This document shows, in pieces, positions 5,028 to 23,900 of a stretch of 64,000 nucleotides of DNA. Source of the DNA: an uncultured Gammaproteobacteria bacterium. GTDB taxonomy: Bacteria > Pseudomonadota > Gammaproteobacteria > DRLM01. A program made the position numbers and the translations under genes. The stretch is from contig CAVSNY010000003.1 of the NCBI GenBank assembly GCA_963729605.1, positions 352,001-416,000 on the forward strand, given 5' to 3'. Under the pieces are notes generated by a model. That model saw only the letters and a list, made by a program, of their open reading frames with translations. It was not told the DNA's origin and made no database searches. How positions within the stretch are numbered: the first letter of the stretch is position 1; each line of letters starts with the position of its first letter.

Positions 5028-5794
5028 GGTTTGCCTCCGCCGCGTTTGAGGTAGTCGGCGAGCGATTGCGTCGGTTTGGGTTCAGTCCGCGGACGTGACG
5101 CGGGCGGCGGCGCGGTGTTCGCCCGCACTTCGATACGGCCGATGCTGATGTGTATCGTCGGCGCGGCCGAGCCATGCCGATCCGCCATGTCGGCGGCGAA
5201 CGCGGAGGGCGCGGGTGTTTCGCTGGAATTCATTTTATTGGCGGGGACCAAGGGCGGCTGCTCCCTCTCCCCTACCCCCTCTCCCGCGAGGGGAGAGGGG
5301 AATGAAGAGGTCGGCGCGTATTTTGACGCATCCGCGGTAAATCCTGAGTTACTTGTCGGCACACTGTTTTGTGTATCGCCCGGCACAAGCCCCTCTCCCC
5401 GCGCGGGAGAGGGGTTGGGGAGAGGCTGAGCCGACATGTGAGCGACGGAGGTAAAAGCCGCATCGTCACTTTTCCTTTGCGGAACGTCCGGTTTGTTATA
5501 CGCAGCGGTTTTCTCCCCTTCTCCCGTAAAGGGGAGAGGGGACGCATATACCGCGTTCGGTGCTTTTGCGTTCCCTCCCTCCGCGCGGGGAACGCGCAGC
5601 GAGAGGGGCAGAGCCGGTTGAGGAGAGATAGAGAGAGCGTCATCGGTTCCAGACGCATTCTGTGAAATGAGACTCGAGATATCACGCGCCGCGCCCTCGT
5701 GTTCGAAGGGCGCGAACAGACTCGGCAGCCGCGGCGCGATCAAAGGCGCCGTTCCCAAACTGCGTTGCGCGAGACGGCTGAGGAAATCGCTCAT
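5024..5794 (-). CDS. eCIS hypothetical protein with low-complexity middle containing in-frame palindromic repeats
   Basis: N-terminus MSDFLSRLAQRSLG...PRLPSLF and C-terminus PTIHISIGRIEVRA...SLADYLKR are typical of this locus type; ATGA-coupled. Confidence 0.75.
   Translation of the reverse strand: MSDFLSRLAQRSLGTAPLIAPRLPSLFAPFEHEGAARDISSLISQNASGTDDALSISPQPALPLSLRVPRAEGGNAKAPNAVYASPLPFTGEGEKTAAYNKPDVPQRKSDDAAFTSVAHMSAQPLPNPSPARGEGLVPGDTQNSVPTSNSGFTADASKYAPTSSFPSPLAGEGVGEREQPPLVPANKMNSSETPAPSAFAADMADRHGSAAPTIHISIGRIEVRANTAPPPASRPRTEPKPTQSLADYLKRGGGKP
5262..5630. repeat. about four REP-like CCCTCTCCC/GGGAGAGGG hairpins inside a CDS
   Basis: Copies near 5262-5300, 5390-5425, 5511-5541 and a degenerate one at 5571-5630; translated as SPLAGEG, SPARGEG, SPLPFTGEG. 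Confidence 0.75.
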
Positions 5795-6519
5795 GACGCC
5801 ACTCTCTGTAAATAAGCGGCGCGGCGCGCGGGGCTCAGCGCGAGGATGTCGGCCTCGCGCCAGCCGTAGGCGCGCGCCAGCAGGTGGACCTCCAGCAACA
5901 GGCGTTGCGCGCGCGCGGCGACTTCGCTCCACAGGATGTGCACGATGTCCAATAACGATTGCCAGCGATGGGCGCAGGCGGGACAGTGGAGGTCCAGCAG
6001 CAGCTCGGCCCCTGGATCGGCGGCGAGCGCGGCCTCGGCGAGCGCGTCGCGCAGGGTCGGTGGCAAGGCTTCGGTATCGATCACCTCGTCATCGCGGCGG
6101 GCTTCGACCACGCAGCGCTGCATCAATAAACGCCGGGCCTCCGTGACATCAGCGGCGGTGGCCGCGGCGGCGAGATCGAAGCTGTCGAGCGGGCGTATGC
6201 GCAGCGCGTAATTGTTTATTTCGAATGTGCATGCATGCGTGTCGTCGGGCAGTGCTTGCAGCGAACCGCAAGAGAGATCGAACTCCACCGTTTCGTTGCA
6301 CTGCGGACACACGCCGCGGCCGCCCAGCCGGTCGCCGAAGTTCAGTCGGCGCAAAATGAGCAGGCGCTGATTGCGTACACCCAGAGGCAGCGCGGCCAAT
6401 TCGTCGCGTGAACACCCAGGCTCCGCCGCCGTCAGCAAGGCCAGCGCCTGATCGACGGGGTGCTGGTGCTGCGCGGTCTCCCAGAGTTGAAGGATGTCGT
6501 GGGCGGCGAGGGCGCGCAT
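5791..6519 (-). CDS. phage baseplate-like / tail assembly protein with two CxxC pairs
   Basis: 242 aa, CPQC and CPAC, C-terminal EVHLLARAYGWREADILALSPARR; follows the tube gene. Confidence 0.8.
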   Translation of the reverse strand: MRALAAHDILQLWETAQHQHPVDQALALLTAAEPGCSRDELAALPLGVRNQRLLILRRLNFGDRLGGRGVCPQCNETVEFDLSCGSLQALPDDTHACTFEINNYALRIRPLDSFDLAAAATAADVTEARRLLMQRCVVEARRDDEVIDTEALPPTLRDALAEAALAADPGAELLLDLHCPACAHRWQSLLDIVHILWSEVAARAQRLLLEVHLLARAYGWREADILALSPARRAAYLQRVAS

Positions 6520-7487: not shown

Positions 7488-9071
7488 TCACGTCTGGATC
7501 TGCCCGGCGATCTGTTGGATCTTGATCACCACGAACTCGGCGGGTTTGAGCGGCGCGAAGCCGACGACGATGTTGACGACCCCCGAGTTGATGTCGTTCT
7601 GCGTGGTGGTCTCCTTGTCACATTTGACGAAGTAGGCGTCGCGCGGACTGCTGCCTTGAAATGCGCCCTGGCGGAACAGGCCCTGCATGAAGGCGCCGAG
7701 GTTGAGACGGATCTGCGCCCACAGCGGTTCGTCGTTGGGTTCGAACACCACCCACTGCGTGCCGCGGAACAGGCTTTCTTCGAGAAACAGCGCGAGGCGC
7801 CGCACCGGCAGGTATTTCCACTCCGAGGCGAGCTGATCGGCGCCGCGCAGGGTGCGCGCGCCCCACACCACGCGGCCGATCACCGGAAAGCTGCGCAGGC
7901 AATTCACCGCGAGCGGATTGAGCTGGCCGTTTTCGCCGTCGGTGAGTTTGGTGGTGAGTTCGACCACGCCGTTGAGCACCGCGTCGTTGCCGGCCGGCGC
8001 CTTCCATACGCCGCGCTGGCCGTCGGTGCGCGCCATCACGCCGGCGACCGCGCCGCAGGGCGCGAAGTCGGCGAGGCGGTTTTCCTGCAAGGGGTCGGGC
8101 AGGCGCAGGCGCGGGAAATACAATGCGGCGTTTTCGCTGCGCGCCAGCCCCCAGGCCGCGCTGTCGAGACCCGCGGCGCCGGTGAGATCGGAGTGCAGAT
8201 TCCAGGTGCTGAGCGGATCGACCACGTACATCGCCCGGCGCTGTTTGCAGTATTGCGCGGCGGCGCTGCGGGTCTGCGCATTGACGTCGCCGCCGACCTC
8301 GCGGGTGAGCGGCGGAATGCAGAGCAGATTGAACAGGTCCGCCTTTTCCAGCGCCCAGATGCCCTGTTTCGCCGCTTCCAATGCGGCGAGCGAGATCTGG
8401 TTGTCGGTGATCGCCGCGCCTTCGTTGCCGGTGGCGGTGAAGGCGGTGGACGAGGCGTTGTCGAGCAGGGGATCGGCGCCGGCGGGCGGATTGCCGTGGG
8501 CGACGGGGCGCAGCGCCGGCACCGTGCCCGGCGGCGTGACGATGCGCACGAGCTGCGATTCCTGCTCCAATACCCGCGTGACGAAACGGGCGTTGTTGGG
8601 ATCGGTGGAGAGATTCACGTAGCGTTCGGTGACGCCGGTGGTGGTGTCGCGCACCGCGAGATTGAACAGGCTATTGGCCGGATCGGTGGCGAGCGACGGC
8701 CGCGTGTTGTGATCGACGCGCACTCGCAGTTTTTCGCCCCAACGCCCGGGACTCGCCGCGACCAGATTGAAACCCGCCGCGAGGGTGAGGGTGGCGGCGG
8801 CCGCGCCGTTGTGCACGCGCACGATCAGGGCGTCGGTGCCGCCGTTCTGAAAGAATTGCTGCACCGAGTAACTCATGCTGCTGTCGCGCCACAGGCCGCC
8901 GAAGACGCGCTCGAATTCGGCGTAGCTCTGCACGCGTACCGGCTCGTTGGCGGGCCCGCGCAGGGCGCGGCCGACGAAGGCGGTGATCGAGGTGGCGACG
9001 CCGGTGATGGTGCGGACCCCGCTCGGCACTTCTTCGATGTAGACACCGGGATAGGATAGGGTGACGGGCAT
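7488..9071 (-). CDS. contractile tail sheath protein
   Basis: MPVTLSYPGVYIEEVPSGVRTITGVATSITAFVG; RGVWKAPAG; WGARTL; WVVFEPNDEPLW; GFAPLKPAEFVV. Confidence 0.97.
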   Translation of the reverse strand: MPVTLSYPGVYIEEVPSGVRTITGVATSITAFVGRALRGPANEPVRVQSYAEFERVFGGLWRDSSMSYSVQQFFQNGGTDALIVRVHNGAAAATLTLAAGFNLVAASPGRWGEKLRVRVDHNTRPSLATDPANSLFNLAVRDTTTGVTERYVNLSTDPNNARFVTRVLEQESQLVRIVTPPGTVPALRPVAHGNPPAGADPLLDNASSTAFTATGNEGAAITDNQISLAALEAAKQGIWALEKADLFNLLCIPPLTREVGGDVNAQTRSAAAQYCKQRRAMYVVDPLSTWNLHSDLTGAAGLDSAAWGLARSENAALYFPRLRLPDPLQENRLADFAPCGAVAGVMARTDGQRGVWKAPAGNDAVLNGVVELTTKLTDGENGQLNPLAVNCLRSFPVIGRVVWGARTLRGADQLASEWKYLPVRRLALFLEESLFRGTQWVVFEPNDEPLWAQIRLNLGAFMQGLFRQGAFQGSSPRDAYFVKCDKETTTQNDINSGVVNIVVGFAPLKPAEFVVIKIQQIAGQIQT

Positions 9072-9098
9072 GTGTTCTCTCCTTTGGTGGACAGGTTT

Positions 9099-9464
9099 TT
9101 ACGGCGTGGCGTCGCGCCCGATCAGGATTTCGATGACCGCGTCGGCGCCCGTGTTATTGGTGAAGGTCAGACTGGTGGCGCCGCCGAGCAGGCCGACGGC
9201 GCCGGTGCCGATGAACACCTGCGGGCCGTCCAGGGGCACGTCGTTGCCGTTGACCTCGTAGCTCAGGTCGGCGCTGGGCGCTTGCGGATTGATAATGAGC
9301 AGCGCGACATCGGCGTTCGGTACCAGATCGACCTGTTGTGTCACGCCGTCTTCGATGCCGACTTCGAGTTTGTCGTAGGCGTCCACTTCCAGGTCACCCG
9401 CCGCCGAGAGGCTGGGCCCGTTGAGGGCCTGCGCCACGTAATTCCAGCTGATTTTTTCTGCCAT
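9099..9464 (-). CDS. acidic hypothetical protein upstream of sheath
   Basis: 121 aa, AAGGAG RBS, operon orientation. Confidence 0.75.
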   Translation of the reverse strand: MAEKISWNYVAQALNGPSLSAAGDLEVDAYDKLEVGIEDGVTQQVDLVPNADVALLIINPQAPSADLSYEVNGNDVPLDGPQVFIGTGAVGLLGGATSLTFTNNTGADAVIEILIGRDATP

Positions 9465-9546
9465 GCCTTATCTCCTTACAATATTTGGTGCGGATGATGG
9501 CGGCGTTCGGGGCGCGATGCGGGTCCATCCGCGATTTTTAAAAAGC

Positions 9547-9807
9547 CTACGGAATCGGTTTGGCCCGCGCCGAGGAATAAATCACACGGCTATCCGGCAA
9601 TATTTCCTTGCTAACCACACCGCGCTGGATCAGGCGCTCCAAGGCCCGCTCCACCTTGAACGACGTCGCGGCAAGCGGCATACAAGTCAACCACCAGCTC
9701 CGGATACCTTCCAGACTGTCTTTGCTGCGAGGGTGCTTTTCGAGGTATTGCTCAATCTCCAGCGCGATAGCATTTACCTCGGCGTCGTTGTCCGCGATTT
9801 CATTCAC
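9547..9807 (-). CDS. small winged-helix-like hypothetical protein, first gene of the operon
   Basis: YLEKHPRSKDSLEGIRSWWL...VERALERLIQRGVV. GTG start at 9807 with GAGG RBS is preferred because ATG 9867 lies inside the sigma54 promoter. Confidence 0.7.
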   Translation of the reverse strand: MNEIADNDAEVNAIALEIEQYLEKHPRSKDSLEGIRSWWLTCMPLAATSFKVERALERLIQRGVVSKEILPDSRVIYSSARAKPIP

Positions 9808-9856
9808 CGTGTGGCCTCGGCTGCGTGCGGCAACGCCGCGTCTGGCGATCACTATC

Positions 9857-9871
9857 GCAAGCGACATGCCA
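9857..9871 (-). promoter_or_regulatory. sigma54 (-24/-12) promoter of the eCIS operon
   Basis: Minus strand TGGCATGTCGCTTGC, exact GG-N10-GC spacing; a bEBP gene is adjacent. Confidence 0.85.
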
Positions 9872-9885
9872 TTAACTTTGGTTTT

Positions 9886-9898
9886 TAACTGATTGTTT
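9886..9898 (-). promoter_or_regulatory. IHF-like site
   Basis: AAACAATCAGTTA versus WATCAANNNNTTR (one mismatch), between the promoter and candidate enhancers. Confidence 0.5.
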
Positions 9899-9933
9899 TA
9901 TATGTTTCAGAATTGAGTAAGGGGAGGGTGATC

Positions 9934-10037
9934 GGGTGAAAAAACACCCATTTTTGCCTTTCGATATCTAGGCGATTGGATTTGATGCAAAAAATTAAGT
10001 GGGTCGATTTTATCCCGGTGACGGTAATTAAATACCC
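9934..10037. promoter_or_regulatory. three candidate upstream activator sites (GGGT-N8-ACCC)
   Basis: GGGTGAAAAAACACCC 9934, GGGTCGATTTTATCCC 10001, CGGTAATTAAATACCC 10022. Confidence 0.55.
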
Positions 10038-10168
10038 AATTGCGACAGGCAGTTCTTATCAATTTTTCGATGAATCCTTGAAGACGTATTTACGCGCTTT
10101 CAGTTTTAGCGCGCGCCTAGTCTACGTATCTTCAACGTCGACGACAATATTTATAAATCAGTTTTTTG

Positions 10169-11203
10169 CTAAGAAGACTTAGGTAAACGCTTGAACTCCG
10201 TCCTGGCGAGTCCGTATTTTTTGATGAGCTTGCCCAGGGCGCTGCGTTCCTTGCCGGAAAGGTCGGCGGCCAGGCTGACATTGCCATGAGTTTCACTCAG
10301 CAAAGAGGAGAGGTAGGATTTTTCGAATTGGGCGATGGCGCGGGCCTTGGCGGTCTGAAAATCGCCGAGTGTGATCCGGCTGAGACTGCGCTCGGCCTTG
10401 CGGCGATCGTACACCGGTTTAGTCTCATCGAGACTAAACCGGATCAACGGATCATCGGACACCAGGAATTGCCGGTGGATGAGGTTCTCGAGTTCGCGCA
10501 CATTGCCCGGCCAACTATAACGTAGAAAGGCGCTGATGTTATCGGGATGCAATGAGCGTGGTGCTTGTTGGTATTCCTGGGCGAAGCGCGCGATGAAGTT
10601 TTCCGCGAGATGCAGCACATCGTCGCCGCGTTCCCGCAACGGCGGCAAATCCAGACATACCAGATTCAATCTAAATAACAGATCTTCGCGGAAGAGGCCC
10701 TTGTTCACCATGCCTCGCAGGTCGCGGTTGCTCGCGGTGATGATCCGCACGTCGGCGTGGCGGATGCGCCCGCCCACCGGGCGATAGGCGCGATCTTCCA
10801 AAAAGCGCAGCAACACGACCTGCGCCTTGGGACTCATGACTTCCACCTCGTCGAGAAGCAGGGTGCCGCCCTCGGCCTGCGCGATGATGCCGGCCCGCGC
10901 GACCTTGGCATCAGTGAATGCGCCGCGTTCGCAACCGAACAGTTCGCTTTCGAGCAAACCATCGGCGATGGCGCCGCAATTGATGGGAATGAAGGGTTGA
11001 TCGCTGCGCGCGCTAGAATAATGAATGGCGCGCGCCACCAATTCTTTACCGGTCCCCGTCTCGCCTTGGATCAACAAGGTGGCGTCGCGGGTGGCCAGTT
11101 TTTTAATCAGAGACAACACGTGTAAAAACGCCGGGGAGCACCCCACCAGCTGAGTATGCGTGCACTTTTCCGCGGGATTATTGAAATGAGACCCGAGCGC
11201 CAT
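10169..11203 (-). CDS. sigma54-dependent enhancer-binding protein lacking a sensory domain
   Basis: GETGTGKE, ESELFG..GAFTDA, WPGNVRELEN, C-terminal Fis-type HTH; only ~18 aa precede the AAA+ domain. Confidence 0.93.
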   Translation of the reverse strand: MALGSHFNNPAEKCTHTQLVGCSPAFLHVLSLIKKLATRDATLLIQGETGTGKELVARAIHYSSARSDQPFIPINCGAIADGLLESELFGCERGAFTDAKVARAGIIAQAEGGTLLLDEVEVMSPKAQVVLLRFLEDRAYRPVGGRIRHADVRIITASNRDLRGMVNKGLFREDLLFRLNLVCLDLPPLRERGDDVLHLAENFIARFAQEYQQAPRSLHPDNISAFLRYSWPGNVRELENLIHRQFLVSDDPLIRFSLDETKPVYDRRKAERSLSRITLGDFQTAKARAIAQFEKSYLSSLLSETHGNVSLAADLSGKERSALGKLIKKYGLARTEFKRLPKSS

Positions 11204-11427
11204 CCGTGCGTTTTCCTTGTAATGGAAGAATCCGAACTCCTCTGTATCGCTAAGAGGGTTCTAAATCCAGCAGGAAATTCCATCCGGTCATGTCAATTCG
11301 TGACAACACCGACGATGACAGTGTAGGCGTCTTAGTGAAGCTCGATCAAGATCAATGTTGTAATGATGGGGGGCTTGAGCACCGGGAAAATATCCGATGA
11401 AAATACTCAGGACCTCCATCGCTGTGC

Positions 11428-11748
11428 TTATTTAACCGGTGCTTGGCGGCGATGACGATATTTGATGGTGACGTGGGGTTGAGGATCATTCCGCTGTCCA
11501 TCCAAAGGCGCATCGATCGGCTGTTCCGCGTCATGATTCGGGTTGGCATGGTATGCGGCGGATCCGGCGGGAGGGGTTTTATTGTTGCGGCGTAGACGCA
11601 AATAACCCCGGCGACCCGACTCCTGAGAGACTTGCGGTGAGCGTGCTTGAAGCACCTTCACTTGAACGGGAACCCCTTTATCGACCGCACTGAGAGTTTG
11701 TACGGCCCGCTGTATATCGGTGTGATGAAAATATTGTTCCAATTGCAT
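11428..11748 (-). CDS. hypothetical protein
   Basis: Open frame MQLEQYFHHTDIQ...PHVTIKYRHRR; no recognisable family. Confidence 0.35.
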   Translation of the reverse strand: MQLEQYFHHTDIQRAVQTLSAVDKGVPVQVKVLQARSPQVSQESGRRGYLRLRRNNKTPPAGSAAYHANPNHDAEQPIDAPLDGQRNDPQPHVTIKYRHRRQAPVK

Positions 11749-12139
11749 GGGGGAAGCTTGAGAAAGGTCAATGGTAATGATGATCATTGGTTGTTCGTGC
11801 TACTTAAATTAAGAGATTAAATGGGACGGCTATGTACTTCAAAACTTTTTAAGCATGAAAAACGATTGTAAGCGTCACGTTATTCATTATGAGCAGTGGG
11901 ATGCTAAATCACCTTTTAAATATTATCCATCACCAATTTCATTATTGCGCGATATTCCCGATTCCATTTCAAATGCGGAGGATATGGACTGAATAAACCC
12001 AAGCCATTTTTTGCCGCCTTTAATCGTAACGAACGATTGTTTGGCGCCATCTTGGTGCGCCGGGGTTGCATATCGGCTTTGTCCCGGTTGGGAACGTACA
12101 AAAATCCGCTCTTGTCTGGCCTTTGGGGGTCCATCCTAT

Positions 12140-12167
12140 TATGCGCATAATCATTACGGTGGTTGAA
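12140..12167 (+). other. dif-like attachment site (XerC arm and core intact, XerD arm degenerate)
   Basis: TATGCGCATAA-TCATTA-CGGTGGTTGAA shares TGCGCATAATCATTA (15 bp) with the site at 13954. Confidence 0.8.
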
Positions 12168-12520
12168 CTCGGCATGGTCATATTGCCCCCCTTGTGAGCA
12201 AAAAATAAAGGTTTTCGCAATGAAAAAAGCCTGTGCCTGCCCCAAAAGCGGTTTTGCAGGCGCGGGCTGACCTTGTAGAACACCCCTCGGCAGATGCCGC
12301 GCCGCCGCCGCTGCGGTAATTCGAGGCGTGGCAGGAAGAGTTAACAGCTTCGCTCCGCTACGCTCACCGGAGCGCCTTCGTCGCGATTGAATACCCACTG
12401 CCGTGGCAGGACACGAACGGCGCGGGTACGGTGGCTCGTGCCTCGCCATCCGGATCCGCGCCGCTGCGGCTACCCGTATCTCGGATCCTGATGCGACGGC
12501 TGTTTTTAACGATGCGGACC

Positions 12521-13108
12521 TCATACCACGTCATCCAGCGGTTGAGTGCATCGAAAGAAATCGTTGATCTCAAGGGACGGGTTATGCGTCATGTCATCCG
12601 GCCAGTCCTCGGGATACTCACCCAGGCGCTCGATGACCACCCGCCAGTCCCCCATGAACTCGATGCTAGCCACAATCGCCTGGGTGCCCACCGGCCAAAA
12701 GGCCCAAAAGGCCTCCTCCGGCGGTCCCCAGGGCGCGACCACCCGAAACTCGGCATGCAAAAGGCGCATGATGCGCCAGGGTTCCTTGGCGAGCAGATCC
12801 ACCAATTCGGAATGCGACGACACGCCAAACCACGCTTGAGACTGGGTGGGGACAGGCCCTTGCAACGGCACCGCAACCCCGGCGGCCTTGAGAATGGCGA
12901 GATGCTGAGGCCAGAGGGCAGGGGAGACCCGTTTACGGGCCTCCGCCCAACCCAGGGCGTTGGCAAGACACCACGTACCGTAAGCCCCACCCGCGAGCTC
13001 CGCCGGATCGGCCAACAGAGGGGCACCCACCGACGGCGAGAACACGGCGACCTGACACGCCTGGATCAGTCCAGCCGCAAAGACCCCTGAAATAAGATGG
13101 TCATTCAT
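12521..13108 (-). CDS. protein resembling the C-terminal (pX) part of filamentous phage II/X replication proteins
   Basis: 195 aa, GGGGAGG RBS. AYGTWCLANALGWAEARKRVSPALWPQHLAILKAAGV aligns without gaps, by eye, to the recalled Ff pX segment YFGFYRRLVNEGYDSVALTMPRNSFWRYVSALVECGI. Confidence 0.55.
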   Translation of the reverse strand: MNDHLISGVFAAGLIQACQVAVFSPSVGAPLLADPAELAGGAYGTWCLANALGWAEARKRVSPALWPQHLAILKAAGVAVPLQGPVPTQSQAWFGVSSHSELVDLLAKEPWRIMRLLHAEFRVVAPWGPPEEAFWAFWPVGTQAIVASIEFMGDWRVVIERLGEYPEDWPDDMTHNPSLEINDFFRCTQPLDDVV

Positions 13109-13528
13109 GGCTCAGACCTCCCCGATTGTGGTGGTGAGAATCAGGGCGAAAACCCGAAAGTGAGCCACCATGGCTCAAGAGTCCACTGGTTATAGTATGT
13201 GGACTCTCGTCATGCACCACGTCGGTGCAAGACGAAAAAGTGGGTACTTGCTCATGGCTCAGACCTCCCCGATTTGGGATGAAAAAGTCCCACCCGTGAG
13301 ACAAAGTGGGGGTTGTTACAGGGGACCCCCACTTAGCCGCGGCGATCACAAAGCGACCTTCATGCCAAGCTTCGGACTGGGTGCGTACTGACCCTTGAAA
13401 GGGGGAGGTGGCGGGATGCTTATTCATGGTTCAGCCCTCCCCGATGGTGGTGGTGAGTGCCACCCATGGCACTTAGTGCGGGTGTTACTGTTACCCGCAC
13501 ACCCCCGGCGATCACAAAGCGGCCTTCT
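13105..13528 (-). repeat. three tandem units, each a double hairpin (Ff-type plus-strand origin) followed by a shared RBS-ATG leader
   Basis: Hairpin pairs at 13160-13207, 13287-13334 and 13456-13500; 22-bp leader ATCGGGGAGGKCTGARCCATGA at 13105, 13252 and 13424. Confidence 0.85.
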
Positions 13529-13916
13529 TGCGTTGAAGCCTGTCCTGATTCCATTCGAGCTCCGCCTGGCCGAGCTGGTGGCGATAGTCGCGGATGAGCT
13601 GGTACAGGAAGGGCAACACCTGGATATCGCCCGGGGCGAGCCCACCCTTGGCGAAGCCCGGCGGGAACAAGTAGCCGTTGTGCACCTCCCAGCCGTCCCA
13701 GCCTGGCCAGGGCACATAGCCGGCCTGAATAGCCAGCAGTCGGAGCGCCGTGGGATTCACCGGCCGGTCGCGACCCCAGCGCCGGTAAGTCTGCTTGGCG
13801 ACCAGACAGAGGGCCGCCGCTTGCACGGTGCTGAGCCCGGCCAGCGTCTGCAAGGGCCGCGGGGTGGTCAAATTGCCCTGATAACCTGCTTGAAGCAACT
13901 CGGTTAACTCCCTCAT
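13512..13916 (-). CDS. filamentous phage DUF3653-like regulatory protein
   Basis: HTH-like LSTVQAAALCLVAKQTYRRW followed by WPGWDGWEVHNGYLFPPG (W.GW....G.L..P); lies next to dif as in inoviruses. Confidence 0.75.
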   Translation of the reverse strand: MRELTELLQAGYQGNLTTPRPLQTLAGLSTVQAAALCLVAKQTYRRWGRDRPVNPTALRLLAIQAGYVPWPGWDGWEVHNGYLFPPGFAKGGLAPGDIQVLPFLYQLIRDYRHQLGQAELEWNQDRLQRKKAAL

Positions 13917-13953
13917 GAGGTAGGCCCTTTATCGGATTTTGGCCCCCTCGCAT

Positions 13954-13981
13954 AGTGCGCATAATCATTATTATGTTAAAT
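13954..13981 (+). other. dif: dif site (XerC/XerD)
   Basis: AGTGCGCATAA-TCATTA-TTATGTTAAAT versus E. coli GGTGCGCATAA-TGTATA-TTATGTTAAAT; XerD arm identical. Confidence 0.93.
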
Positions 13982-14094
13982 TATGGAAGGGCCCAAGGTA
14001 ACAAAAGGTTTCTCCCACGAATTTTTCCTGCCCCACCACCATCGCGGAGCACCATGATTTCGCGGACAGCAATCGTCTGCTCGGACCTGGAATC

Positions 14095-14260
14095 ATTCGC
14101 CGAAGCCAGCCGTGATCATGGACCTAGTCCACTGGGTATTCCATACGCACATAGCGATGAAACGTCGAATGCGGCCATTCGCGCATTCGTTGTACCCATC
14201 CATGTTTCACGGGGGTGTAATGGATGTAGTTCACGCATCGCCCCAAGTCCGCTTCGGCGC
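14095..14260 (-). pseudogene. C-terminal remnant of a REP-associated tyrosine transposase (RAYT)
   Basis: DLGRCVNYIHYTPVKHGWVQRMREWPHSTFHRYV matches the RAYT YIHxNPVKHG...WPxSSFHRY pattern; N-terminus absent; decayed GTAG REP at ~14320-14349. Confidence 0.75.
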
Positions 14261-14490
14261 GGACCGGCGCGGTGTTCCCACAGGCCATATTCGCCTTTTC
14301 ACTACGGCGTTTACATTCGGCGGATCGCGTTGCACGCATCTGCCCTACGGCCCTTGGCCTCCCATGATCGCGTCATAAAGGAGTTTCCTTTTTAAGAACA
14401 TTGCCTTCTGTCAAATCAAAAAGCATCTCAAAAAGTTTTTCAGAATCCAATTCAGTAGAAAAAATTTCCAACCACAAGCCATCATGCCCC

Positions 14491-15808
14491 TGAACCGCCC
14501 CGTGTTTTGCGGAGGCTGTTTGGTTTAAGTCATGCTGCAATCGCAGCATGACGGCGGTATTGCCTGTAGTAGTTTGCCTCAGCTTCTGCTGGAGGGATAT
14601 ACCCCAGAGGCTCTAATAGCCGGTGGTGGTTAAACCACGAGACCCATTCCAGGGTCGCCAGCTCCACGGATTCCCGGGTTTTCCAGGGTCCCCGACGATG
14701 GATCAGCTCGGCCTTGTACAGCCCGTTGATCGTCTCGGCCAATGCGTTATCGTAGCTGTCGCCCTTGCTGCCGACCGAAGGCTCGATGCCGGCCTCGGCC
14801 AGTCGCTCGGTGTAGCGGATCGAGACGTATTGCGAGCCCCTGTCGCTGTGATGGATCAGGGCATCCTCTGGTTCGGGCTGCCGGGCGTACAGAGCTTGCT
14901 CCAGTGCGTCGAGCACGAAGTCCGTGGCCATGGTGCGGCTGACCCGCCAACCGACGATGCGCCGGGCGAAGACATCAATGACGAAGGCCACATACAGCCA
15001 GCCCTGCCAGGTCGACACATACGTGAAATCCGACACCCAGAGCTGGTTGGGCCTGTCCGCCTTGAACTGTCGATTGACCCGGTCCAGCGGGCGTGGCGCC
15101 GAGTGGTCAGGCACGGTGGTGCGAACCGCCTTGCCACGGCGCACACCCTGCAGGCCCAGGCGCTTCATCAGACGCTCGACCGTACAACGGGCCACCTCGA
15201 TGCCCTCGCGGTTCAGCTGCCGCCAGACTTTGTCGGCGCCGTACACCTGCAGGTGGGTGTGCCAGACACGCTGAATATGCGACATCAATACCTCATCGCG
15301 CTTGGCCCGGGCGCTGCGCAGATCCGGATCGCGCCGCCGGGCCGCATGGCGCCGGTAGGCCGATGGGGCAACCTGCAACACCTTGCAGATCGGCTCGACC
15401 CCATAAGCATCCCGGTGCTGGTCGATGTAGGTATTTACGACTTCAGTTTGCGGTCGAGCTCCGCCTGTGCGAAAAAAGCGCTGGCGGTACGCAGTATCTC
15501 ATTGGCGCGCCGCAACTCCTTGTTCTCGCGCTCCAGCTCCTTGATGCGCTGTGTCTCGGACGTGGTCGTGCCAGGACGCGCTCCGGCATCGGCCTCCGTA
15601 CGCTTAACCCACTCCAGCAGCGTCCCGGGTACACAGCCAATCTTCGGGGCGATCGACTCCACGGCCATCCACAACGACGGGTATTCCCCGCGATGCTCCT
15701 GCACCATTCGAACCGCACGTTCACGGACTTCAGGTGAAAACTTGTTCGACTTTTTCATGGCTCCATTCTCTCAAATGTTGGAGCCTCCTCAAAACCAGGG
15801 GCGGTTCA
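14491..15808 (-). mobile_element. IS3-family insertion sequence (1318 bp)
   Basis: Terminal IRs TGAACCGCCCCGTGTTTTGCGGAGGCT and AGCCTCCTCAAAACCAGGGGCGGTTCA, flanked by C runs (3-4 bp target duplication). Confidence 0.95.
14530..15758 (-). CDS. IS3 transposase OrfA (15435-15758) and OrfB (DDE), programmed -1 frameshift
   Basis: Orf[20 protein letters not shown]; Orf[26 protein letters not shown]; T6C run near 15471-15477. Confidence 0.93.
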
Positions 15809-16063
15809 CCCCTATTAATAACAAAGCGGCTATGTTTTACAAATTCTTTTGCATTTTCGGAGGAATCCCCAAAATCGTCTTTAAATGAATGTTTCAGAAA
15901 TTCCAATGAGCTTGGGTCAGCATATAGAACAAAGAGAGTCTCATTGCCGGAGATATTCCATGAGCCCGCGTAGGGCAATGAAATGGACTCCTCCCTCCTA
16001 ATCGGCATCGATGTGCCAGACTGTTGTTTGTAAGCAAACAGTCAATAGCAAGGAGGAGTCCAA

Positions 16064-16987
16064 ATGAAGCTTAAACGAATCGGTATTGATCTGGCAAAGA
16101 GCGTATTTCAGGCGCATGGCGTAGATAGTCATGAGCACGTCATGTTGAAGAAAAAGTTGAAACGTCATGAGGTGCTGAATTGTTTTCGCCAGATCGAACC
16201 CTGCGTGGTTGCGATGGAGGCTTGTGGCAGCGCCCACTACTGGGCTCGGGAGCTTGAGAAGCTCGGCCATCAGGCAAAACTGATTGCCCCACAATTTGTT
16301 AAGCCCTATGTGAAGAGTGGCAAAAACGACGCCAATGATGCCGAGGCTATCTGCGAGGCGGCCAGCCGTCCCGCCATGCGCTATGTTGCAGTGAAAACTG
16401 CCGAGCAACAGGCCGGACAGGCCTTGCATCGAGTCAGGAGCCGATTGGTCAAGGCACGCACCGCGCTGGAGGATGGCGAGAACGAGCTGCCGGGACCGAT
16501 GCGAGAACTGCTCGCTCAACTGTCAGAAGAGCTTGAGCAGAAAGATGTCCACATTGCCCTGCTGGATCGGCAGATCAAAAATCAGTGCGCTCAAGATGAG
16601 CGCATCAGACGCCTGATGGCGCTCGAAGGTGTCGGCCCCATCAGCGCCAGCGCGATAGTCTCAGCCATCGGTGATGCCCGCCAGTTCAAGAGTGGCCGGG
16701 ATCTGGCCGCCTGGTTGGGGCTGGTTCCCAGTCAACACTCCAGTGGTGGCAAGGAGCGATTGGGGGCGATCTCAAAGCGCGGCGACACATACCTGCGCAC
16801 CTTGTTGATTCATGGAGCACGCGCGGTGATCAGCCGCTGCGAAAAGAAAGAGGATCGTAAGAGCCAATGGCTCAAAGGAATCATGGCGAGGCGCAACAAG
16901 AATATCGCCACGGTAGCGCTTGCCAATAAAAACGCCCGTGTTATCTGGGCAGTTCTCAGTCGCGGTGAAAATTATCAGCCGGCCTGA
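16064..16987 (+). CDS. IS110 DEDD transposase, apparently with an in-frame internal deletion
   Basis: IGIDLAK, MEACGSAHYW, KNDANDAEAI, GLVPSQHSSGGK; 307 aa with KARTAL joined directly to EDGENELP. Confidence 0.92.
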   Translation: MKLKRIGIDLAKSVFQAHGVDSHEHVMLKKKLKRHEVLNCFRQIEPCVVAMEACGSAHYWARELEKLGHQAKLIAPQFVKPYVKSGKNDANDAEAICEAASRPAMRYVAVKTAEQQAGQALHRVRSRLVKARTALEDGENELPGPMRELLAQLSEELEQKDVHIALLDRQIKNQCAQDERIRRLMALEGVGPISASAIVSAIGDARQFKSGRDLAAWLGLVPSQHSSGGKERLGAISKRGDTYLRTLLIHGARAVISRCEKKEDRKSQWLKGIMARRNKNIATVALANKNARVIWAVLSRGENYQPA

Positions 16988-17257
16988 GAGGGTGAGCACG
17001 TTGTAAGAAATAGGTTTTGCAGGAGAAGGAGCGTTCCACCACGATTGCAAAGTGAATTGTATTGATGACAACCGGTCGAACCGGCACGTGTGAAACCTGA
17101 CTATTGCATGGGCCCTCTGGAAACAAGGCCGCTAGGGCGATCAGCTACACGTGAGCGGATATTCATCATGGCTCTGGGTATAAGCACCCTGTACAGAAGC
17201 CGGATATACGGAAGCAGTCGTACTTGGGTTGTCAGAAAAACAGTTTGCTTGCAAAAC
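16988..17257 (+). ncRNA. probable seekRNA/bridge-RNA region of the IS1111 element
   Basis: ~270-bp non-coding stretch between transposase stop and right IR, the known location in IS1111 elements; structure not verified. Confidence 0.6.
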
Positions 17258-17461
17258 GGGAGGAGTCCATATACGCAATAACCGCAGGGCATTGCGCCGG
17301 ATGTATCAAGATTTCATTCGGCGCAATACGGCTATCGCCTATTGCGCCCTACGAGTTCTATCCGTGCCTGAAATATAACCTCCTGGACCGTTGCCGCCCG
17401 TCATAGAGCCGAATAATCCAAACCCGATGAATTACCGCTTCGCGGTCATCTGCTACCCGCC

Positions 17462-17914
17462 TTACGAAAGTTCAATCCAGTTTGGATGATCGCGAAGAGG
17501 AAAATTCTTTTTTAAATGTTTTTTTACTGAAGATAAATCTATATTGTCACAATCTGACGGGGATAACCCTATAGAAAGATTTTCCTGAGCAAGTTTAGAC
17601 TTCGCTTTTCTTAATAAAGGATTTGCGTAACAAATAAGGTATCTTTTATCTTCTTCTTGATACCGATGAGATAATCCAATTAGTCGGATAGCCATTTCCA
17701 AATTTTCAATGGCAGCTTGGTCTGCGGAAGTCGCATAACATAAAAAACCTTTTAGCAAATGGTATTCAGCCTTTTTACCAGAAAAATGTTGATCAATTTT
17801 CTCTAACTGCTGTAGAGCGGACTGGTAGTCGCCTTTCGACGCAAAATCAAGACTTCTGACCCATCGTAAAGCTATGCCAGGCGCTATAAAAATCTTCTTG
17901 AAAAAATAAGTCAT
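17462..17914 (-). CDS. putative immunity protein (TPR-like helical)
   Basis: 150 aa, AT-rich, 8 bp downstream of the toxin gene; KGDYQSALQQLEK...AEYHLLKGFLCY. Confidence 0.7.
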   Translation of the reverse strand: MTYFFKKIFIAPGIALRWVRSLDFASKGDYQSALQQLEKIDQHFSGKKAEYHLLKGFLCYATSADQAAIENLEMAIRLIGLSHRYQEEDKRYLICYANPLLRKAKSKLAQENLSIGLSPSDCDNIDLSSVKKHLKKNFPLRDHPNWIELS

Positions 17915-17922
17915 ATTGAAAC

Positions 17923-20900
17923 CTAATCCTTAAATACCTCAAATATTATTCTAACAATCTCCACAGCTTTTTCACCAAAGGTCCTCGGCGCAGGCGTAGG
18001 TTTTTGAGCCTCAGCAGCCCGTTTCAGACCCTCAAATAGCTGCGATTCAGCATACTTTACATCCAGAGTTCCAGCCTTAATTTTAGAAGCATTTATTTCG
18101 CACTGTTTTCGTAATAAGAGCTTTTGGGCGGGACTAAGACTTTGTCCAGCGACTTCCTTCAACAAAAAATTCAATTCACTCGTATTGCCTCTTAGAACAG
18201 CTTGGTAGACTGCCCCCTCAATTGAGTTCTTGGGTATGATCAAACCAGAGGGGTCGGTTAAATTAATCGGATCATTGAGCACGTAGGCATAAAGATTAGT
18301 TCCATCGCCTGCAAATAAAATCGGATCCTTCGCCGTCCACCTCCCCGTCTCCGCATCATAATCCCGCGCGCCGAAGCGGGTGAGCTTGGTATGCTGATCA
18401 TAGATACCGCCCGCAAAGCCAAACGGCTGGAAGCCGGGGTTGGTGTCTTGGGTAATATAGCCGAACTCATCGTAATCCAGTCGTTGAGCGATGGCTCCGG
18501 TGGTCGTATTGACGACCAGTCTCGGACTGCCCAAGTGATCAGAGAGAATGCGGTAGGTCTCGCCGCCTTTGATCAGGTAGTCCGGCACGTTGAGCTTGCT
18601 GCCGTAGACGAAGCGGGCGACGACGGCGCCGCTGCCGTTGAGTTCGGCGACGGGGTTGAGTTGGTCTTGGTAGAGGAAACCTTGAACCAGCGTGCCGTTG
18701 AGCTTTTTACCGACGCGACGGTTGCGGCCGTCGATGAGGTAGTCGATGATCGTGCCGCCGGGTAACGCGACGTGGCGCAGATTACCGATCACATCGTAGC
18801 TGTAAGTGGTGGTTGTTCCGGAAACGGTTTTGCTTAGCAATTCGCCGTTGGCGGTGTAGCCGTAGGCGGCGCCGTTGTAGCCGGTTAAACGATCTTGGGC
18901 GTCGACAGTGGCGGTGATGGCGCCGCGGCGGTCAAAGCCGCCGAGGCGGTTGCCGTTGCTGTCGTAGCTGTAGCTGGCGACGGTGGCGCCGTTTTGTTTG
19001 ATTTGGTAGAGCCGGCCCGGCGTGTCGTAGATGTAGTCATAGGTGGTGGTGACACCGGCTTGGGTCTCGATCTTTTGGGTGATGCGGCCGAGTTTGTCGC
19101 GGGTGTAAGCGGCGTTGTAAAGCGCGCTGCCGCTGTACGCCGCCGAGTGGCCGGCCAGTTCGGCGAAGCCATTGTAGCTTTGCGCGGTGCTGAGGTTGCC
19201 CAAAGCGGTGGCGGTGAGCAGGCCGTTCTGCGCATCACGAGTGAGGGTTACCGCGCCGGCTAGTGTCAGCAGGCCGTCGTTGTCGTAAGCGTAGTTGATG
19301 GCGCTGCCGTTGACGGATAAGCCAGTCACTTGAAACATGTTGTTGTAGGCGCGGCTGACGCTGCCGGCCACCGCCCCGCTCCAGGTTTCATTCACGGGCA
19401 GGAAGCCGTCGTAGGTGTAATCGAGGGTATCGCCCGACGGCGCGGTGAGGCGGGTCACTTGCCCACGAGTGGGATCATAGCTCACGGCGATTTGCCCCTG
19501 CGGCAAGACGACCGCGCTCAAACGGCCGCCGGTGTCGTAGCTGAAATCGATGCGCTGATTATCCGGCCGGGTGATTTGGGTGAGCTGCTTGTCGAGGTTA
19601 TAGCTGTAATGCGTGACCGTCGCGCCGCCGGACAGCGCGGGCGGCGTGTAGTGGTCTTGCTGATCGACGGCGGTGTAACTGAAGGTATGGGCGCCGCGGC
19701 CCGGCGGGGTGATCGAGGTCACGTTGCCGTTGGCGTCATAGCCGTAGGCGATGTGACGGCCGTCGGGCAAAGTCTGTTGCGTCACCCTGCCCGCGAGGTC
19801 GTATTGGAAGTTCATCGCCCGGCCGAGGGCGTCGGTGAGCGACGCGACGTAGCCGCCGGGGTTGTAGGCCAGCGCGACGGAACGCGCCGCCGCGCCCGTT
19901 CCCTGATTGATGCCTTGCAAACGGCCGCGGGCGTCGTAACTCCAATTGATCGCTTCGATACCGCTTGCCTGGGCAGTAACCAGACGGCCTTTGACGTCGA
20001 GGACCGCGCTGCTCTGCCGCGACAGCGGCGTGGTATCGGTGAAGGTGCGGTCGGCGGCGTTATAGCTGCTGGTATAACTGCGGCCGTTGATGCTGAGGGT
20101 CGTGGTCTCACTGGTCAGGCTGAGCGGATCGTGCGCCGTGGCGAGCGTGGCCGTGCGGGTGATCGTGGACGTTGATGTCAAACCGCTTGGCGTGGTGATG
20201 GTGGTATTTTTAGGCAAGGGCGCCTGCATGCCGAAGCGCGGATCGGGACCATGCAGGACGCTGATCATGGTGCCATCCGGTTCCAGCCGCGTCTCCGTGC
20301 CGTCGGGCTTGACGGTGGTAATGGCAAGGGTGCCGTCGGGCGCGGTGTTGGTGCGGCGCACATCACCGATCGGCAGCCGTTCCACCGCGTAACTGGTGGT
20401 GCGGCCCAGGGCCGAACTCATGCTGACGTGGTAGCCGGTTTCGAGATCGGCGCGGGTCAGGTTCCAGAAACCGCCCGCGGCGTTTTCATCGCGGGTCAGG
20501 CGACCGCGGGCATCATAGGTCATGTGCGAGGTGTGATTGCGCGGGTCGGTGAAGCTGAGCAGCAAGCCGTCGGCGGTATAAGTCGCTTGATAGGATTCGC
20601 CGGCGGGATTGGTGATGTGAGTGAGGTAGCCATTGGCGTTTAAGCTCAACGTAGTGCGTTGGCCGTCGGGCGCGACGATGGCGGTGGGTTGGCCAAGGCT
20701 GTCGCGTTCCACGGTAGTAACGTTATTGGTGCCATCGGTGACGGTGGTGAGGTAGCCATTAGCGTCATAGCTGAACTGGTAAAGCACGGCGCCGGTGCGA
20801 GCGTCAAGGGTGCGGAGATGGCGGCCGGAGGCGCTGAAGTGATAAAGTTCGGTGCCGTCACGCGATGCAATTAGAAAGTCACTAAGTGATATGCCCGGGA

Positions 20901-23900
20901 GAGTAGATGCTACCTTGCGGATACGAATATTGAATAAGTCCGCAATGTACAAATTGCCTTGTGCATCCGTTACTACACTTCGGGGGTTAAAAAACCTCGC
21001 CTGGGTGGCCGGTCCACCGTCGCCGCTGTAGCCCGGCGTACCTGTGCCTGCCAAGGTGGTGATACGCCCGTTGGAATCCACCTTACGGATACGCTGGTTG
21101 CCAGTGTCCGCAATGTACAGACTACCCTGTGAGTCCAAAGTTATGTCGGTAGGATTTGCTAGCCCGGCTTCGGTAGCGGGTCCGCCATCGCCGAAATTGC
21201 CAAAGTTCCCCCCTGCGACGGTTGTGATGTCTCCATTAGGACTTACCTTGCGGATGCGCTGATTGTTTGTGTCCACGATGTATAAATTACCCTCGAGGTC
21301 CAGCGCTATACCATGAGGTTGATTTATTTTGGCCTGTAAAGCCGGTCCGCCATCACCACTGTAGCCATCCACGCCTGTGCCTGCGATGGTGGTAATGCGC
21401 CCGGCGGGGTCTACTTTGCGGATGCGGCTGTTGAATGAGTCCGCGATGTAAAGATTGTTCTGGCCATCTACCACTACACTCCGAGGGTTAGAAAGTCTGG
21501 CCTGGATGGCGGGTCCGCCATCGCCACTGTAGCCCTGCTCACCTGTACCAGCTACTGTGGTGATGTACCCGGTAGGGTCCATTTTTCGGATGCGCTGGTT
21601 GCCAGTGTCCACGATATACAGATTACCCTGGGTATCCACTGCCACATCGGAAGGAGCAGCAAGCATAGCCTGGATGGCGAGCCCGCCGTCCCCGGCGTAT
21701 CCTGATTCACCGACACCAACTACAGTGGTGATTATTCCGGTGGGATATACCTTGCGTATGCGCTGGTTATTTAAATCTGCGATGTAAAAACTGCCCTCTG
21801 CATCCACCGTCACTGCCCATGGGGAATAAAACATAGCCTCAGTGGCGAGTCCGCCGTCGCCGCTATTGCCGAAAGCTGTCTGACCTGTTCCCGCCACGGT
21901 AGTAATTACCGTATCAGCTCCATTTCCCTGGCTAATTCTAGTGGTGCCGTCGCCTATTTGGAGCACTAAGCCTGCGCTGTCATACTGATGGTGCACATTT
22001 AATGTCCATCCACTCATGCCGTGAGCTTTAACATCCTCGTTTTTTATCGACTTAGAATGGTTTTGCCATAACGTGATTTCCTGACGGGCGATATTTCCAG
22101 TCATAGGCGTACCATTTGAAAAAGCGGCAAATGCCGATCCCGATGATAATGATATTGGGGTTAGATAAACTCCGTTATAAACATAACCGATCTTAATCGT
22201 CCCTGTTTGTGTACCCTGCAACGAGTTACCGTAGTCATCGCTGCCATCCCAGATAAAAGTGTAGTGTTGATTCGGCAGTGCGGCGAAGCTTTGAAAAAAT
22301 CGCTGCCCTGCCACCTCGATGATGAGTTCGATACGCTTGAGGCTGGCGGGCACGGTGGTGTTGCTCAAAGGGATGTTCACCGTGTAGCCGGCTTTGTGGC
22401 CGGGCACGCGGTCGCTGCGATAATGCAATGAGAACGGGGTGCCGGTAATGGGCACGGTCTCACCGAGCACCTGGTTCTGGCACTCGATAATGGAGCCCTG
22501 CTCACACTCCGGCTCGTCTTCTTTGATTTCGACCTTGGGAGGCGACGGTGGATTGGGTGGCGTCGCGTCCGGCGGCGGGCCGAAAGGCCAGTTGCAATCC
22601 CAGGGTGTGAAGTGGATGACGGGCACGCGCCACAGGCTTTTGCCGGGCGAATACAGCGTGGCAAGTTGGGCGCGTTCGGCGTCGGTGATGGTGAGCGCCG
22701 CGAGGGCGGCGGCGTTGGCGGGGTTGCCGCTGCCGTCAAGGTCGAGATTGGCGAGGCCGTTGTTGATGCTCAGCACCTTGATGATGCGGCCGTTGTCGGA
22801 CGGGATCCACGCCGCTCGTTCGCGGTTGTAATACCCCGCCGGCACGATGCCGCCCACCGGAAAGTTCAGGAAATTATCGACGTAGAAATAAACCGGTTGA
22901 GTGAAGCGCACGTCTTTGGCGCCGGCGGCGATGGCTTCGTCGACGCTGAGCTCCACGGCGTAGGTGTAACCGCTATTGGGCGGCAATGCGCCGGGCATGG
23001 TGTTGGGACCGTTGGCGCCCACGGTGTATTCGGTGGCGCGCACGTGCAAGCTGGTCAAGGGCTGCGTCGAGCCGTCTGCCAGCACCATCTCCGCTTGCGT
23101 GCCTTGCGGGAAGAGGATGGTGGCCTGGCGGGTGCCGTCGCTGTCGGTGACCACGTTGCCCCGCGCCGCTTGCATGGGAATGGCGGCTTGCAGATTGATG
23201 GCCGTCACTTGGCTGTCGACCGGAATCATCACTACCTCGGGCAGCCAGGCGTAGTCCTGCCAGGGCGCGTTGACTTGGCGCTGTACCGGCAGGTAACCGT
23301 CTTTTTGATAGTTCACGGTGAGATAACCGCCGCCGTTGACGGCGAGATCGAACATGCCGTCGGCACGGCTCAAGGTCTGACCGAATTCGGGGTGTTGATG
23401 AATGGTGACGGTGACGCCGCCGAGTGCGGCATTGTTGCGATCCAGCACCTTGCCGCGCAATACCGCGGCGCGGCGGGCTTCGATGGTACCTTGCGTCACG
23501 CCGGTTTGAATGGGGTTGCTACCGGTATAAAGAAACTTAGTCGCGGCGAAAACCGTGGTGGCGACGGTGGGGTCCACCGGCGGTGCGACGGTCGCCGGAT
23601 CCGGCGGCAGCGATGAAGTTACCGAGGTGCTGGCGGGCGCGCTGGTATTGCCGGCGGTGTCATTGACGCGGATGGTCAAGGTATCGCCGCCCTGCGCGGC
23701 GATGTTGGCGTTGAAGGCGCCGAGGCTGTTGGCCGTCGCCATCACGATGTCGCCGGTGCGGGTGTTGGTGAGGGTGACCCGTGCGCCCGCCTCCACGCTG
23801 CCGGCGGCGCCGGTGACGTTGACGATGCCATTGCTCGGTTCACTCACCGATACCGATCCCATCTGCACGGCGGCGGGTGCCTGGGTGTCGAGCACCAGGG

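Follow-up and report, generated by a model that had tools for sequence, protein, structure and literature searches.

A stand-alone gene-X-type protein in a small element at dif: a probable origin-recognition factor of a Rep-less filamentous-phage satellite

INTRODUCTION

Filamentous-phage satellites and Xer-exploiting integrative mobile elements (IMEXs) shape bacterial evolution, and the cholera toxin phage system is the best known of them. In the Ff phages, protein pX is identical to the last 111 residues of the gene II protein (pII), and it reportedly, in work by Fulford and Model, restrains pII-driven synthesis. Here we describe a ~1.85-kb element at the chromosomal dif site in a 64,000-nucleotide stretch of DNA from an uncultured gammaproteobacterium (contig CAVSNY010000003.1, positions 352,001 to 416,000; "the window" denotes this whole stretch), and in particular its gene for the 195-aa protein P0001. 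An earlier note on this DNA had taken P0001 for a stand-alone relative of pX that lacks the nicking domain and acts as a dominant-negative origin binder, either throttling helper replication or setting the copy number of the element.

The described satellites used here for comparison, TLCphi and RS1, both come from Vibrio, and TLCphi has an initiator of its own, Cri (PMC6744903). VC1465 is XafT, a protein with a helix-turn-helix (HTH) and a DUF3653 domain that activates XerD and thereby makes the integration of TLCphi at dif independent of FtsK; the xafT gene flanks the XerC arm of the phage attachment site, attP (PMC6744903; see also PMC9226527 on the role of XafT). In a lysogeny module described elsewhere, two regulatory genes flank attP and become the terminal genes upon integration (PMC12715192). 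For the core (+) origin of M13, a footprint of the gene II protein (gIIp) at 5774-5813 and a nick after 5780T have been reported (PMC5405960).

RESULTS

P0001 belongs to a family related to the C-terminus of gene II proteins

The gene of P0001 has a strong ribosome-binding site (RBS), GGGGAGG, a few bases ahead of its ATG and lies ~50 nt downstream of an Ff-type (+) origin core (unit 3 below). This is the place of a rep gene, as initiator genes of the gene II protein (G2P) type follow such origins elsewhere, and in both respects the earlier note described the open reading frame (ORF) correctly. P0001 is a single-copy protein in its own genome. A 90%-identity collection yielded six family members, P0001 counted, and a search among 1.84 billion representatives yielded 27 relatives at E<=1e-3. 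None of the 27 carries a nuclease domain and, because all of them are 94-294 aa long, no nuclease-fused version of P0001 exists at that sensitivity. In addition, the Phage_CRI, G2P_X_C, and Zot models matched nothing in the whole genome (94.5% complete; PF05155 was searched in six frames), and Phage_CRI, the model of Cri-type initiators, matched none of the ORFs of the element. The description of P0001 as a stand-alone protein without a nicking domain is therefore upheld.

The family alignment has a conserved N-terminal helical part (AC..A ... AF.TW...GW..AR..VSRSTWYRHL..LR.AGVPVP) and a conserved C-terminal part (GWFG ... RFRVV..W ... WPVGT.G.V..F..W.V..E ... FLRCT.P.E). No conserved His or Tyr, no His-x-His, and no acidic cluster was found in this 27-member alignment. 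Pfam and PHROGs searches with P0001 gave no match, nor did tblastn against phage and plasmid collections.

Profile comparisons revealed the relation to gene II proteins. Aligned by hhalign with pX alone, the P0001 family gave 32%; with a nine-row alignment of pX and G2P it gave 73.8% (score 35.3, P0001 residues 11-85 against pX 6-77), and with 27 G2P C-termini it gave 96.2% (E 2.7e-9, 51 columns, P0001 35-85). The score of 35.3 was reached by 0 of 200 column-shuffled controls, whose maximum was 16.0, and the reversed alignment scored 10.8. A hidden Markov model (HMM) of the family, run over 901 ORFs of viral loci that share the origin core, returned 11 matches, all of them rep ORFs of ~370-430 aa that were matched at residues ~290-400. 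Reciprocally, when P0001-P0030 and 29,493 decoy ORFs of the P0001 genome were searched with an HMM built from the 27 G2P C-termini, the only matches were 12 family members. A language-model neighbour cluster with PF05155 in 12% of its members (score 0.89) is used as a lead only. By these alignments, residues ~35-85 of P0001 are homologous to the first part of the G2P_X_C domain. In all ten Reps examined, a Met lies 25-40 residues ahead of the shared motif, where an internal start like that of gene X might be expected.

The alignment reaches no farther than pX residue 77, or position 59 of 105 in the 27-row G2P_X_C alignment, so the last third, including the PDW end of pX, is unaligned. The PEDW of P0001 (residues 166-169), which the earlier note likened to that end, lies in a variable, gapped stretch of the family and is a chance likeness. 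The resemblance to pX thus stands at the profile level and over residues ~11-85; it finds no echo in BLASTP, in PF05155, or in residues ~90-195, which have no counterpart in pX.

An AlphaFold model of P0001, with the family alignment as input, reached a predicted local distance difference test (pLDDT) score of 88.1 and shows a four-helix domain at 3-75 and a small barrel at ~103-194. Judged by this model, the C-terminal half is probably a separate SH3-like domain that pX does not have. The barrel matched DUF1653/FeoA at Z 5.1-5.3 and the C-domains of MntR/IdeR at Z 4.9-5.2 in VIA, and the best Foldseek match of P0001 was the winged-HTH (wHTH)-WYL activator DriD (E 9.5e-3, TM 0.13-0.20); all of these are at background level. 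For both the whole model and the N-domain, the best matches in fold searches were generic winged-helix and SH3-like folds at Z ~5, with no G2P or pX among them. The N-domain model (pLDDT 79) had a best match of E 1.1 in BFVD, with no G2P match there, and of Z 5.2 in the PDB, and neither list contained a solved G2P structure. No nuclease-like fold was matched by the P0001 model in Foldseek or VIA.

An Xer-type element bounded by dif and a degenerate dif-like site

The right border of the element is a perfect 28-bp dif, of which the 27-mer at 13955-13981 is the sole match in the 3.48-Mb genome at <=3 mismatches. The GC skew of the contig (C3) switches from + to - ~10-15 kb from this site, and the polarity of GGGNAGGG around it is 26:5 on the left and 3:8 on the right. 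Between dif and the left border, all genes lie on the minus strand in the order gene A, a 404-nt structured spacer, P0001, the possible ORF C, and a T-run stem-loop (Table 1).

Gene A has a tblastn match in the VC1465 homologue of Vibrio phage TLC-Kn1 (record HM134800). BLASTP aligned the two proteins at 37% identity over 68 aa (E 3e-10), and hhalign matched the gene A family profile to the same homologue at 95.5% (E 1.4e-8). Within the gene A family, DUF3653 is matched by 9 of 27 members and XRE-type HTH models (HTH_3/HTH_23) by 19-20 of them; the gene A protein of the window, P0031, gave no Pfam match by itself. Because its first gene is XafT-like, with an HTH and DUF3653, we regard the element as a TLCphi-type IMEX, though one without a Rep, coat, or assembly gene. 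When the full element was compared with phages by blastn, only chance matches of 24-37 nt were returned, and an Rfam scan of 9000-18000 returned only the ALIL element of the neighbouring IS3.

The same arrangement occurs on a metagenome contig, L006, at 86% identity and with a frameshift in the P0001-like gene. Set against it, the window copy is a rearranged variant. It contains a 166-nt duplication, which bears unit 1 and the relics of two genes (a short P0001-like one and, from its 3' end, gene A) and is absent in L006 and in contigs of metagenome runs X2 and X3; the X2 contig skips 13340-13505. The window copy also has two insertions, each with an RBS repeat, relative to L006 and contigs of runs X2 and X3; the 41 nt that bear the RBS-ATG copy at 13105-13126, within which the GGGGAGG of P0001 lies, are absent in L006 and in related contigs of these two runs. 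This 22-nt repeat has three copies in the window, none in shuffles, and none elsewhere in the genome.

ORF C gave no Pfam match at E<=10 and is in-frame, with an indel, in L006; its likeness by eye to the gene V protein was not supported. The relic ORFs of the element had no Pfam match either. Of the 3' non-coding end, the T run and GGGCAAWATGACCA are common to two other genomes with such elements, G554 and G771 (see below), and a terminator scan of the element did not list the stem-loop at ~12223-12262.

Three related loci differ from the window at this end. In L023 (G554:C1:1468000-1482000; 7622-8040), L024 (5170-5335), and L012 (1-70), a common TATCCCCGTAGTCCAC[AG]G after the P0001-like gene opens a long imperfect hairpin, closed by GTGG(A/G)CCCACGGGG, where the window copy has ORF C and its stem-loop. 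All three again share the T run and GGGCAAWATGACCA beside the degenerate arm. The hairpin might serve as a packaging signal or as a (-) origin.

The spacer carries origin-like units of two kinds

Unit 3 is of the Ff type. Its hairpin core, GAGTCCAC-12 nt-GTGGACTC at 13179-13206, has the same 8-bp stems as core domain A of the Ff (+) origin, and in both cases TTG and an inverted repeat follow. More specifically, M13 has GAGTCCAC-GTTCTTTAATA-GTGGACTC with TTG at 5766-5792 and then TTCC-AAACT-GGAA through 5810, whereas unit 3 has the loop ATACTATAACCA and the repeat AGCC-CATGGTG-GGCT; this comparison covers core domain A. The hairpin pattern occurred 0 times in 100 window shuffles. Alignment with M13 predicts a minus-strand nick between 13192 and 13191.

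The pattern GAGTCCAC-N10-13-GTGGACTCTTG was found in 47 stretches of IMG/VR viral contigs, most of which are 4-18 kb long and one 181 kb. Among 53 rows of core-bearing sequences, the window and L006 counted, 9 have the exact loop ATACTATAACCA. Covarying NNNNCATGGTGNNNN repeats follow in this loop class, with CATGGTG kept while the arms covary. Several contigs have a rep gene of ~400 aa (MIDKLVLRC...) beginning 20-60 nt farther on, and in others this distance is ~360 nt. All five tested Reps of viral loci with the origin core proved to be Phage_CRI plus G2P_X_C proteins.

Units 1 and 2 are of a second kind, with the loop C[AT]GTAA[CT]A, 1-3 nt, and an inverted repeat such as GTCTCACGGGTGGGAC. 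The elements of L006, G554 (both copies), G771, and G409 have one such unit each, placed between gene A and the P0001-like gene. Stem sequences vary among copies and keep their complementarity, and unit 2 is conserved in L006. A scan of seven loci that have gene A only did not find the second-kind unit; the same scan picked up two unrelated hairpins (window 21896 and L024 8298) with no inverted repeat behind them. The stem GTGCGGGT...ACCCGCAC also occurs in a Chromatiales prophage (L098), where TTT and an inverted repeat come next and the ATG of a 374-aa Phage_CRI plus G2P_X_C protein lies 17 nt farther on. Since this second-kind unit directly precedes a G2P rep gene, P0001-like genes occupy the place of that gene.

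The HP1 stem pattern is mostly unspecific in GC-rich genomes, with at least 120 stretches in genome contigs and 18 in viral contigs, and related-looking ones were limited to L098, L118, and L127. At 2001-2050 in both L118 (a Silvimonas terrae contig) and L127 (a Nevskia metagenome-assembled genome), the same HP1 stem has a GTAA-type loop and, behind it, TTT and an inverted repeat; up to 2 kb from these units there is no match of the P0001-like, XafT-like, or G2P kind. A TTGCT...GGGCAA motif, considered as a sigma-54 promoter, was rejected by eye for its wrong spacing.

The gene pair recurs at dif in other genomes

Homologues of gene A were found in 10 of 400 other genomes of the class sample, and P0001-family genes in 3 of the 399 that were scored (G771, G554, and G409); a phylum-wide sample of 400 other genomes contained none of the P0001 family. 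In all three genomes, the P0001-family gene immediately follows a gene A homologue within an element located at dif. As in the window, dif and degenerate sites bound the elements of G554 and G771. The G771 element has just two genes in ~1.2 kb, G554 has two tandem copies of ~1.6 kb each, the second with a frameshift in its P0001-like gene, and in G409 the pair is on a short contig. Intact P0001-family genes of 186-216 aa, with two conserved domains, are present in four genomes of different families. The 294-aa database protein is a read-through of gene A and a P0001-like gene. A locus search with alignment A3 hit no genome contig, no viral contig, and one metagenome contig, and a search of viral contigs with alignment A5 found none.

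A contig of metagenome run X1, at a depth of 16.8, matches the window up to 12151, one base beyond the XerC arm on the left, and resumes at 14178 after 91 other letters; it looks like an allele without the element. In the same run, element-identical pieces have a depth of ~3 and the left flank a depth of 22, and these depths are not cell counts. The dif pattern was not found at <=3 mismatches in the two nearest genomes, G506 and G677.

Elsewhere, a locus of G027 (C1:2352000-2366000; L027) has two weak gene A-like matches 1.4 kb apart (E ~3e-4), with no dif-like site recognised nearby; the pair may represent a further small tandem element, though of another kind.

Table 1. Positions of the features of the element in the window
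Feature	Position	Strand	Description
Chromosomal dif, right border	13954-13981	plus	XerC arm 13954-13964, centre 13965-13970 (TCATTA), XerD arm 13971-13981
Gene A (P0031)	13512-13916	minus	134 aa, XafT-like (HTH + DUF3653-like); adjoins the XerC arm
Origin-like unit 1	13457-13504	minus	Hairpin GTGCGGGT-AACAGTAAC-ACCCGCAC, TAA, inverted repeat GTGCCATGGGTGGCAC
Relic region	13339-13427	minus	RBS and ATG (13424-13445) open a frame; PFQGSVRTQSEAW copies P0001 81-93; joined to a copy of the gene A 3' end
Origin-like unit 2	13287-13334	minus	Hairpin AAGTGGGGGT-CCCCTGTAACA-ACCCCCACTT, T, inverted repeat GTCTCACGGGTGGGAC
Origin unit 3, Ff type	13161-13206	minus	Nick hairpin GAGTCCAC-ATACTATAACCA-GTGGACTC, TTG, inverted repeat (T)GAGCCATGGTGGCTC(A)
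RBS-ATG repeat ATCGGGGAGGTCTGAGCCATGA	13105-13126	minus	22 nt; precedes P0001; other copies 13252-13273 and 13424-13445
P0001 gene	12521-13108	minus	195 aa, ATG start; ~1-85 helical HTH of gene-X/G2P-C type, ~86-102 linker, ~103-194 SH3-like beta-barrel
Small ORF C	12364-12534	minus	56 aa (MTWYEVRIVKNSRR...); overlaps the P0001 3' end; coding status uncertain
3' non-coding end	12175-12262	minus	T-run stem-loop ~12223-12262, then TTTTTTGCT-N-GGGCAATATGACCA beside the degenerate arm; by eye
Dif-like hybrid site, left border	12140-12167	plus	XerC arm 12140-12150, TCATTA 12151-12156, degenerate XerD arm CGGTGGTTGAA 12157-12167

Neighbourhood of the element

To the right of dif, a 71-aa ORF (14124-14339, minus) gave no Pfam match at E<=1; it looks like a C-terminal fragment of a REP-associated tyrosine transposase (RAYT). 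Metagenome contigs differ in the flank between dif and this fragment, with joints 14020->14269 and 12151->14178. Next come an IS3-type frame pair (14530-15758, minus), whose ALIL frameshift pseudoknot lies at 15364-15480 (Rfam RF01497, 109 bits), and a 307-aa ORF (16064-16987, plus) that looks by eye like an IS110-type transposase. With two insertion sequences just right of dif, this region is a dump for mobile DNA. Farther on, a 2565-aa protein with NHL/YD (RHS-type) repeats (17923-25620, minus) is followed by a low-GC 150-aa ORF (17462-17914, minus), by eye the layout of a polymorphic toxin with its immunity gene. To the left of the element lie a phage-tail-sheath-like gene (7488-9071, minus; Pfam Phage_sheath_1C, 2.5e-9) and a gene for a sigma-54 activator without a receiver domain (10169-11203, minus; Sigma54_activat, 3e-59), which may belong to a contractile injection system locus.

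DISCUSSION

The anatomy of the element, the homologies, the conserved gene pair, and the metagenome contig that skips the interval are supported directly. Our preferred reading, to which we assign a probability of roughly 55%, is that P0001 is the origin-recognition protein of a Rep-less filamentous-phage satellite, a ~1.85-kb IMEX at dif. Its attachment site would pair a good XerC arm with a degenerate XerD arm, and XafT-like gene A would let the host XerCD integrate it without FtsK. The element would carry one to three (+) origin units of the G2P type, each a nick hairpin with an inverted repeat, and P0001 directly behind them. P0001 would have kept the HTH part of the gene II C-terminus and exchanged the HUH nuclease domain for an SH3-like barrel. 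Most likely, it would bind the inverted repeat beside the nick hairpin and there block or steer the G2P nickase of an incoming helper inovirus, with the outcome that P0001 would set the replication of the satellite and possibly that of the helper. What we infer is that P0001 binds the repeat, that the element relies on a helper, and in which direction the effect goes. The interpretation of the earlier note is partly supported: this anatomy would suit a protein that binds the origin in a dominant-negative manner and so throttles the replication of a helper or sets copy number, and the opposite effect, recruitment of the helper's nickase by P0001, may apply instead.

Several observations weigh against this reading. 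BLASTP of P0001 against M13 pX found no match, and PF05155 matched neither P0001 nor any of the 27 family members at E<=1. P0001 itself was not matched by the HMM of the 27 G2P C-termini; it is a weak member and the most divergent one in the shared motif, with VSPALWPQHL in place of the family's SRSTWYRHL. The alignable part comes to only ~51 columns, the beta part of G2P_X_C is missing, and an HTH by itself could serve any DNA-binding role, for example that of a repressor. In G554, G771, and G409, an AGTCCAC...GTGGAC hairpin sits after the P0001-like gene, which makes the placement of unit 3 lineage-specific. A genome completeness of 94.5% leaves room for a missed helper, and a restored dif within the 91 letters of the run X1 contig is an assumption.

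The HTH argument leads to the strongest competitor, which we nevertheless consider unlikely: P0001 could be a transcriptional regulator, in the role of RstR/P16 or TlcR in Vibrio IMEXs, that binds the inverted repeats as operators. It would repress its own gene and perhaps gene A, and so keep the element quietly integrated, or it would confer immunity to related elements, and its kinship with gene X would reflect shared HTH ancestry. P0001 and gene A are indeed the two terminal genes of the element, an inverted repeat lies just ahead of the P0001 RBS, and regulators of the DtxR/IdeR/MntR type and of the wHTH-WYL type likewise combine an HTH with an SH3-like barrel. The structural matches in that direction (Z 5.2/4.9 to the MntR/IdeR C-domains in VIA, Foldseek E ~1e-2 to DriD, PafBC, and CapW) are nonetheless at background level, and the HTH is specifically of the G2P C-terminal kind, not XRE-like as in RstR. 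Moreover, the repeats are parts of replication-origin units and come with no recognisable promoters (a sigma-70 scan of 11900-14200 gave 0 sites).

It is still less probable that P0001 is a new kind of initiator or recruiter that binds the origin, brings in a host helicase or nickase, and replicates the element free of a helper. Such a role would suit a gene that stands in the rep place, shares a 1.2-kb element with no other conserved gene than the XafT-like one, and resides in a genome where helper genes were not found. The family alignment, devoid of a conserved Tyr, His-x-His, or acidic cluster, and the lack of a nuclease-like fold match speak against it, as does the type of origin, which is nicked by HUH G2P proteins. 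Finally, we give very little credence to a decayed filamentous prophage in which P0001 is a deletion-fused rep fragment without present function: the scars of the window copy (the duplicated unit with its relics and the three RBS repeats) and the frameshifts in the second G554 copy and L006 would suit it, but the intact two-domain genes in four genomes, the 27 clusters at 50% identity, a confidently folded C-terminal domain (pLDDT 88) that is part of no G2P protein, proper bounding sites, and a metagenome contig that skips the whole interval do not.

If P0001 is the origin-recognition protein of a satellite, the element would be a natural Rep-less satellite in several proteobacterial families, and it would have kept no more than a gene to activate integration, an origin, and, as a free-standing copy, the DNA-recognition part of an initiator. 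It would offer a simple system in which to ask what the gene II C-terminus (gene X) domain does at the origin, how a satellite borrows or blunts a helper's nickase, and how small a Xer-exploiting element can be. It would also provide a DNA signature for similar elements at dif, namely a XafT-like gene, a hairpin pair, and a P0001-like gene. We tentatively go one step further, with the odds against us: the elements of 1.2-1.9 kb, with two genes and an origin, might be the smallest self-contained phage satellites yet seen, in which XafT gives a home at dif and P0001 is an adaptor that captures or shuts down the nuclease of an infecting inovirus, making the element a hitch-hiker and a defence at once.

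The element would thus be an inovirus satellite or IMEX with a gene-X-type protein. We found no description of such an element in the literature; the DUF3653 tree and tables in the supplement of PMC6744903, which we have not read, may include these loci, as may subscription papers.

Comparison with described systems

TLCphi of V. cholerae and the element have in common integration at dif, an attP with a poor XerD arm, and a XafT-type gene beside the XerC arm, and both are without coat or assembly genes (PMC6744903, PMC9226527). Gene A is a distant relative of the TLCphi xafT. TLCphi has its own HUH initiator, Cri, and the repressor TlcR (PMC6744903), whereas the element has neither and is small, at 1.2-1.9 kb. 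The two-gene lysogeny module is part of a complete phage in PMC12715192, whereas here the module is nearly the whole element; in place of an XRE-type repressor, the XafT-like gene here has as its partner a gene-X-type protein with an origin in front.

The closest counterpart of P0001 itself is the pX of the Ff phages. Both share the helical HTH core and a similar start point within the domain, both are without a nuclease, and both are encoded just behind a (+) origin of the G2P type. While pX is the product of an internal start in gene II, P0001 is a separate ORF with no surrounding gene II and, unlike pX, it has a linker and an SH3-like barrel of ~90 residues in place of the last third of G2P_X_C.

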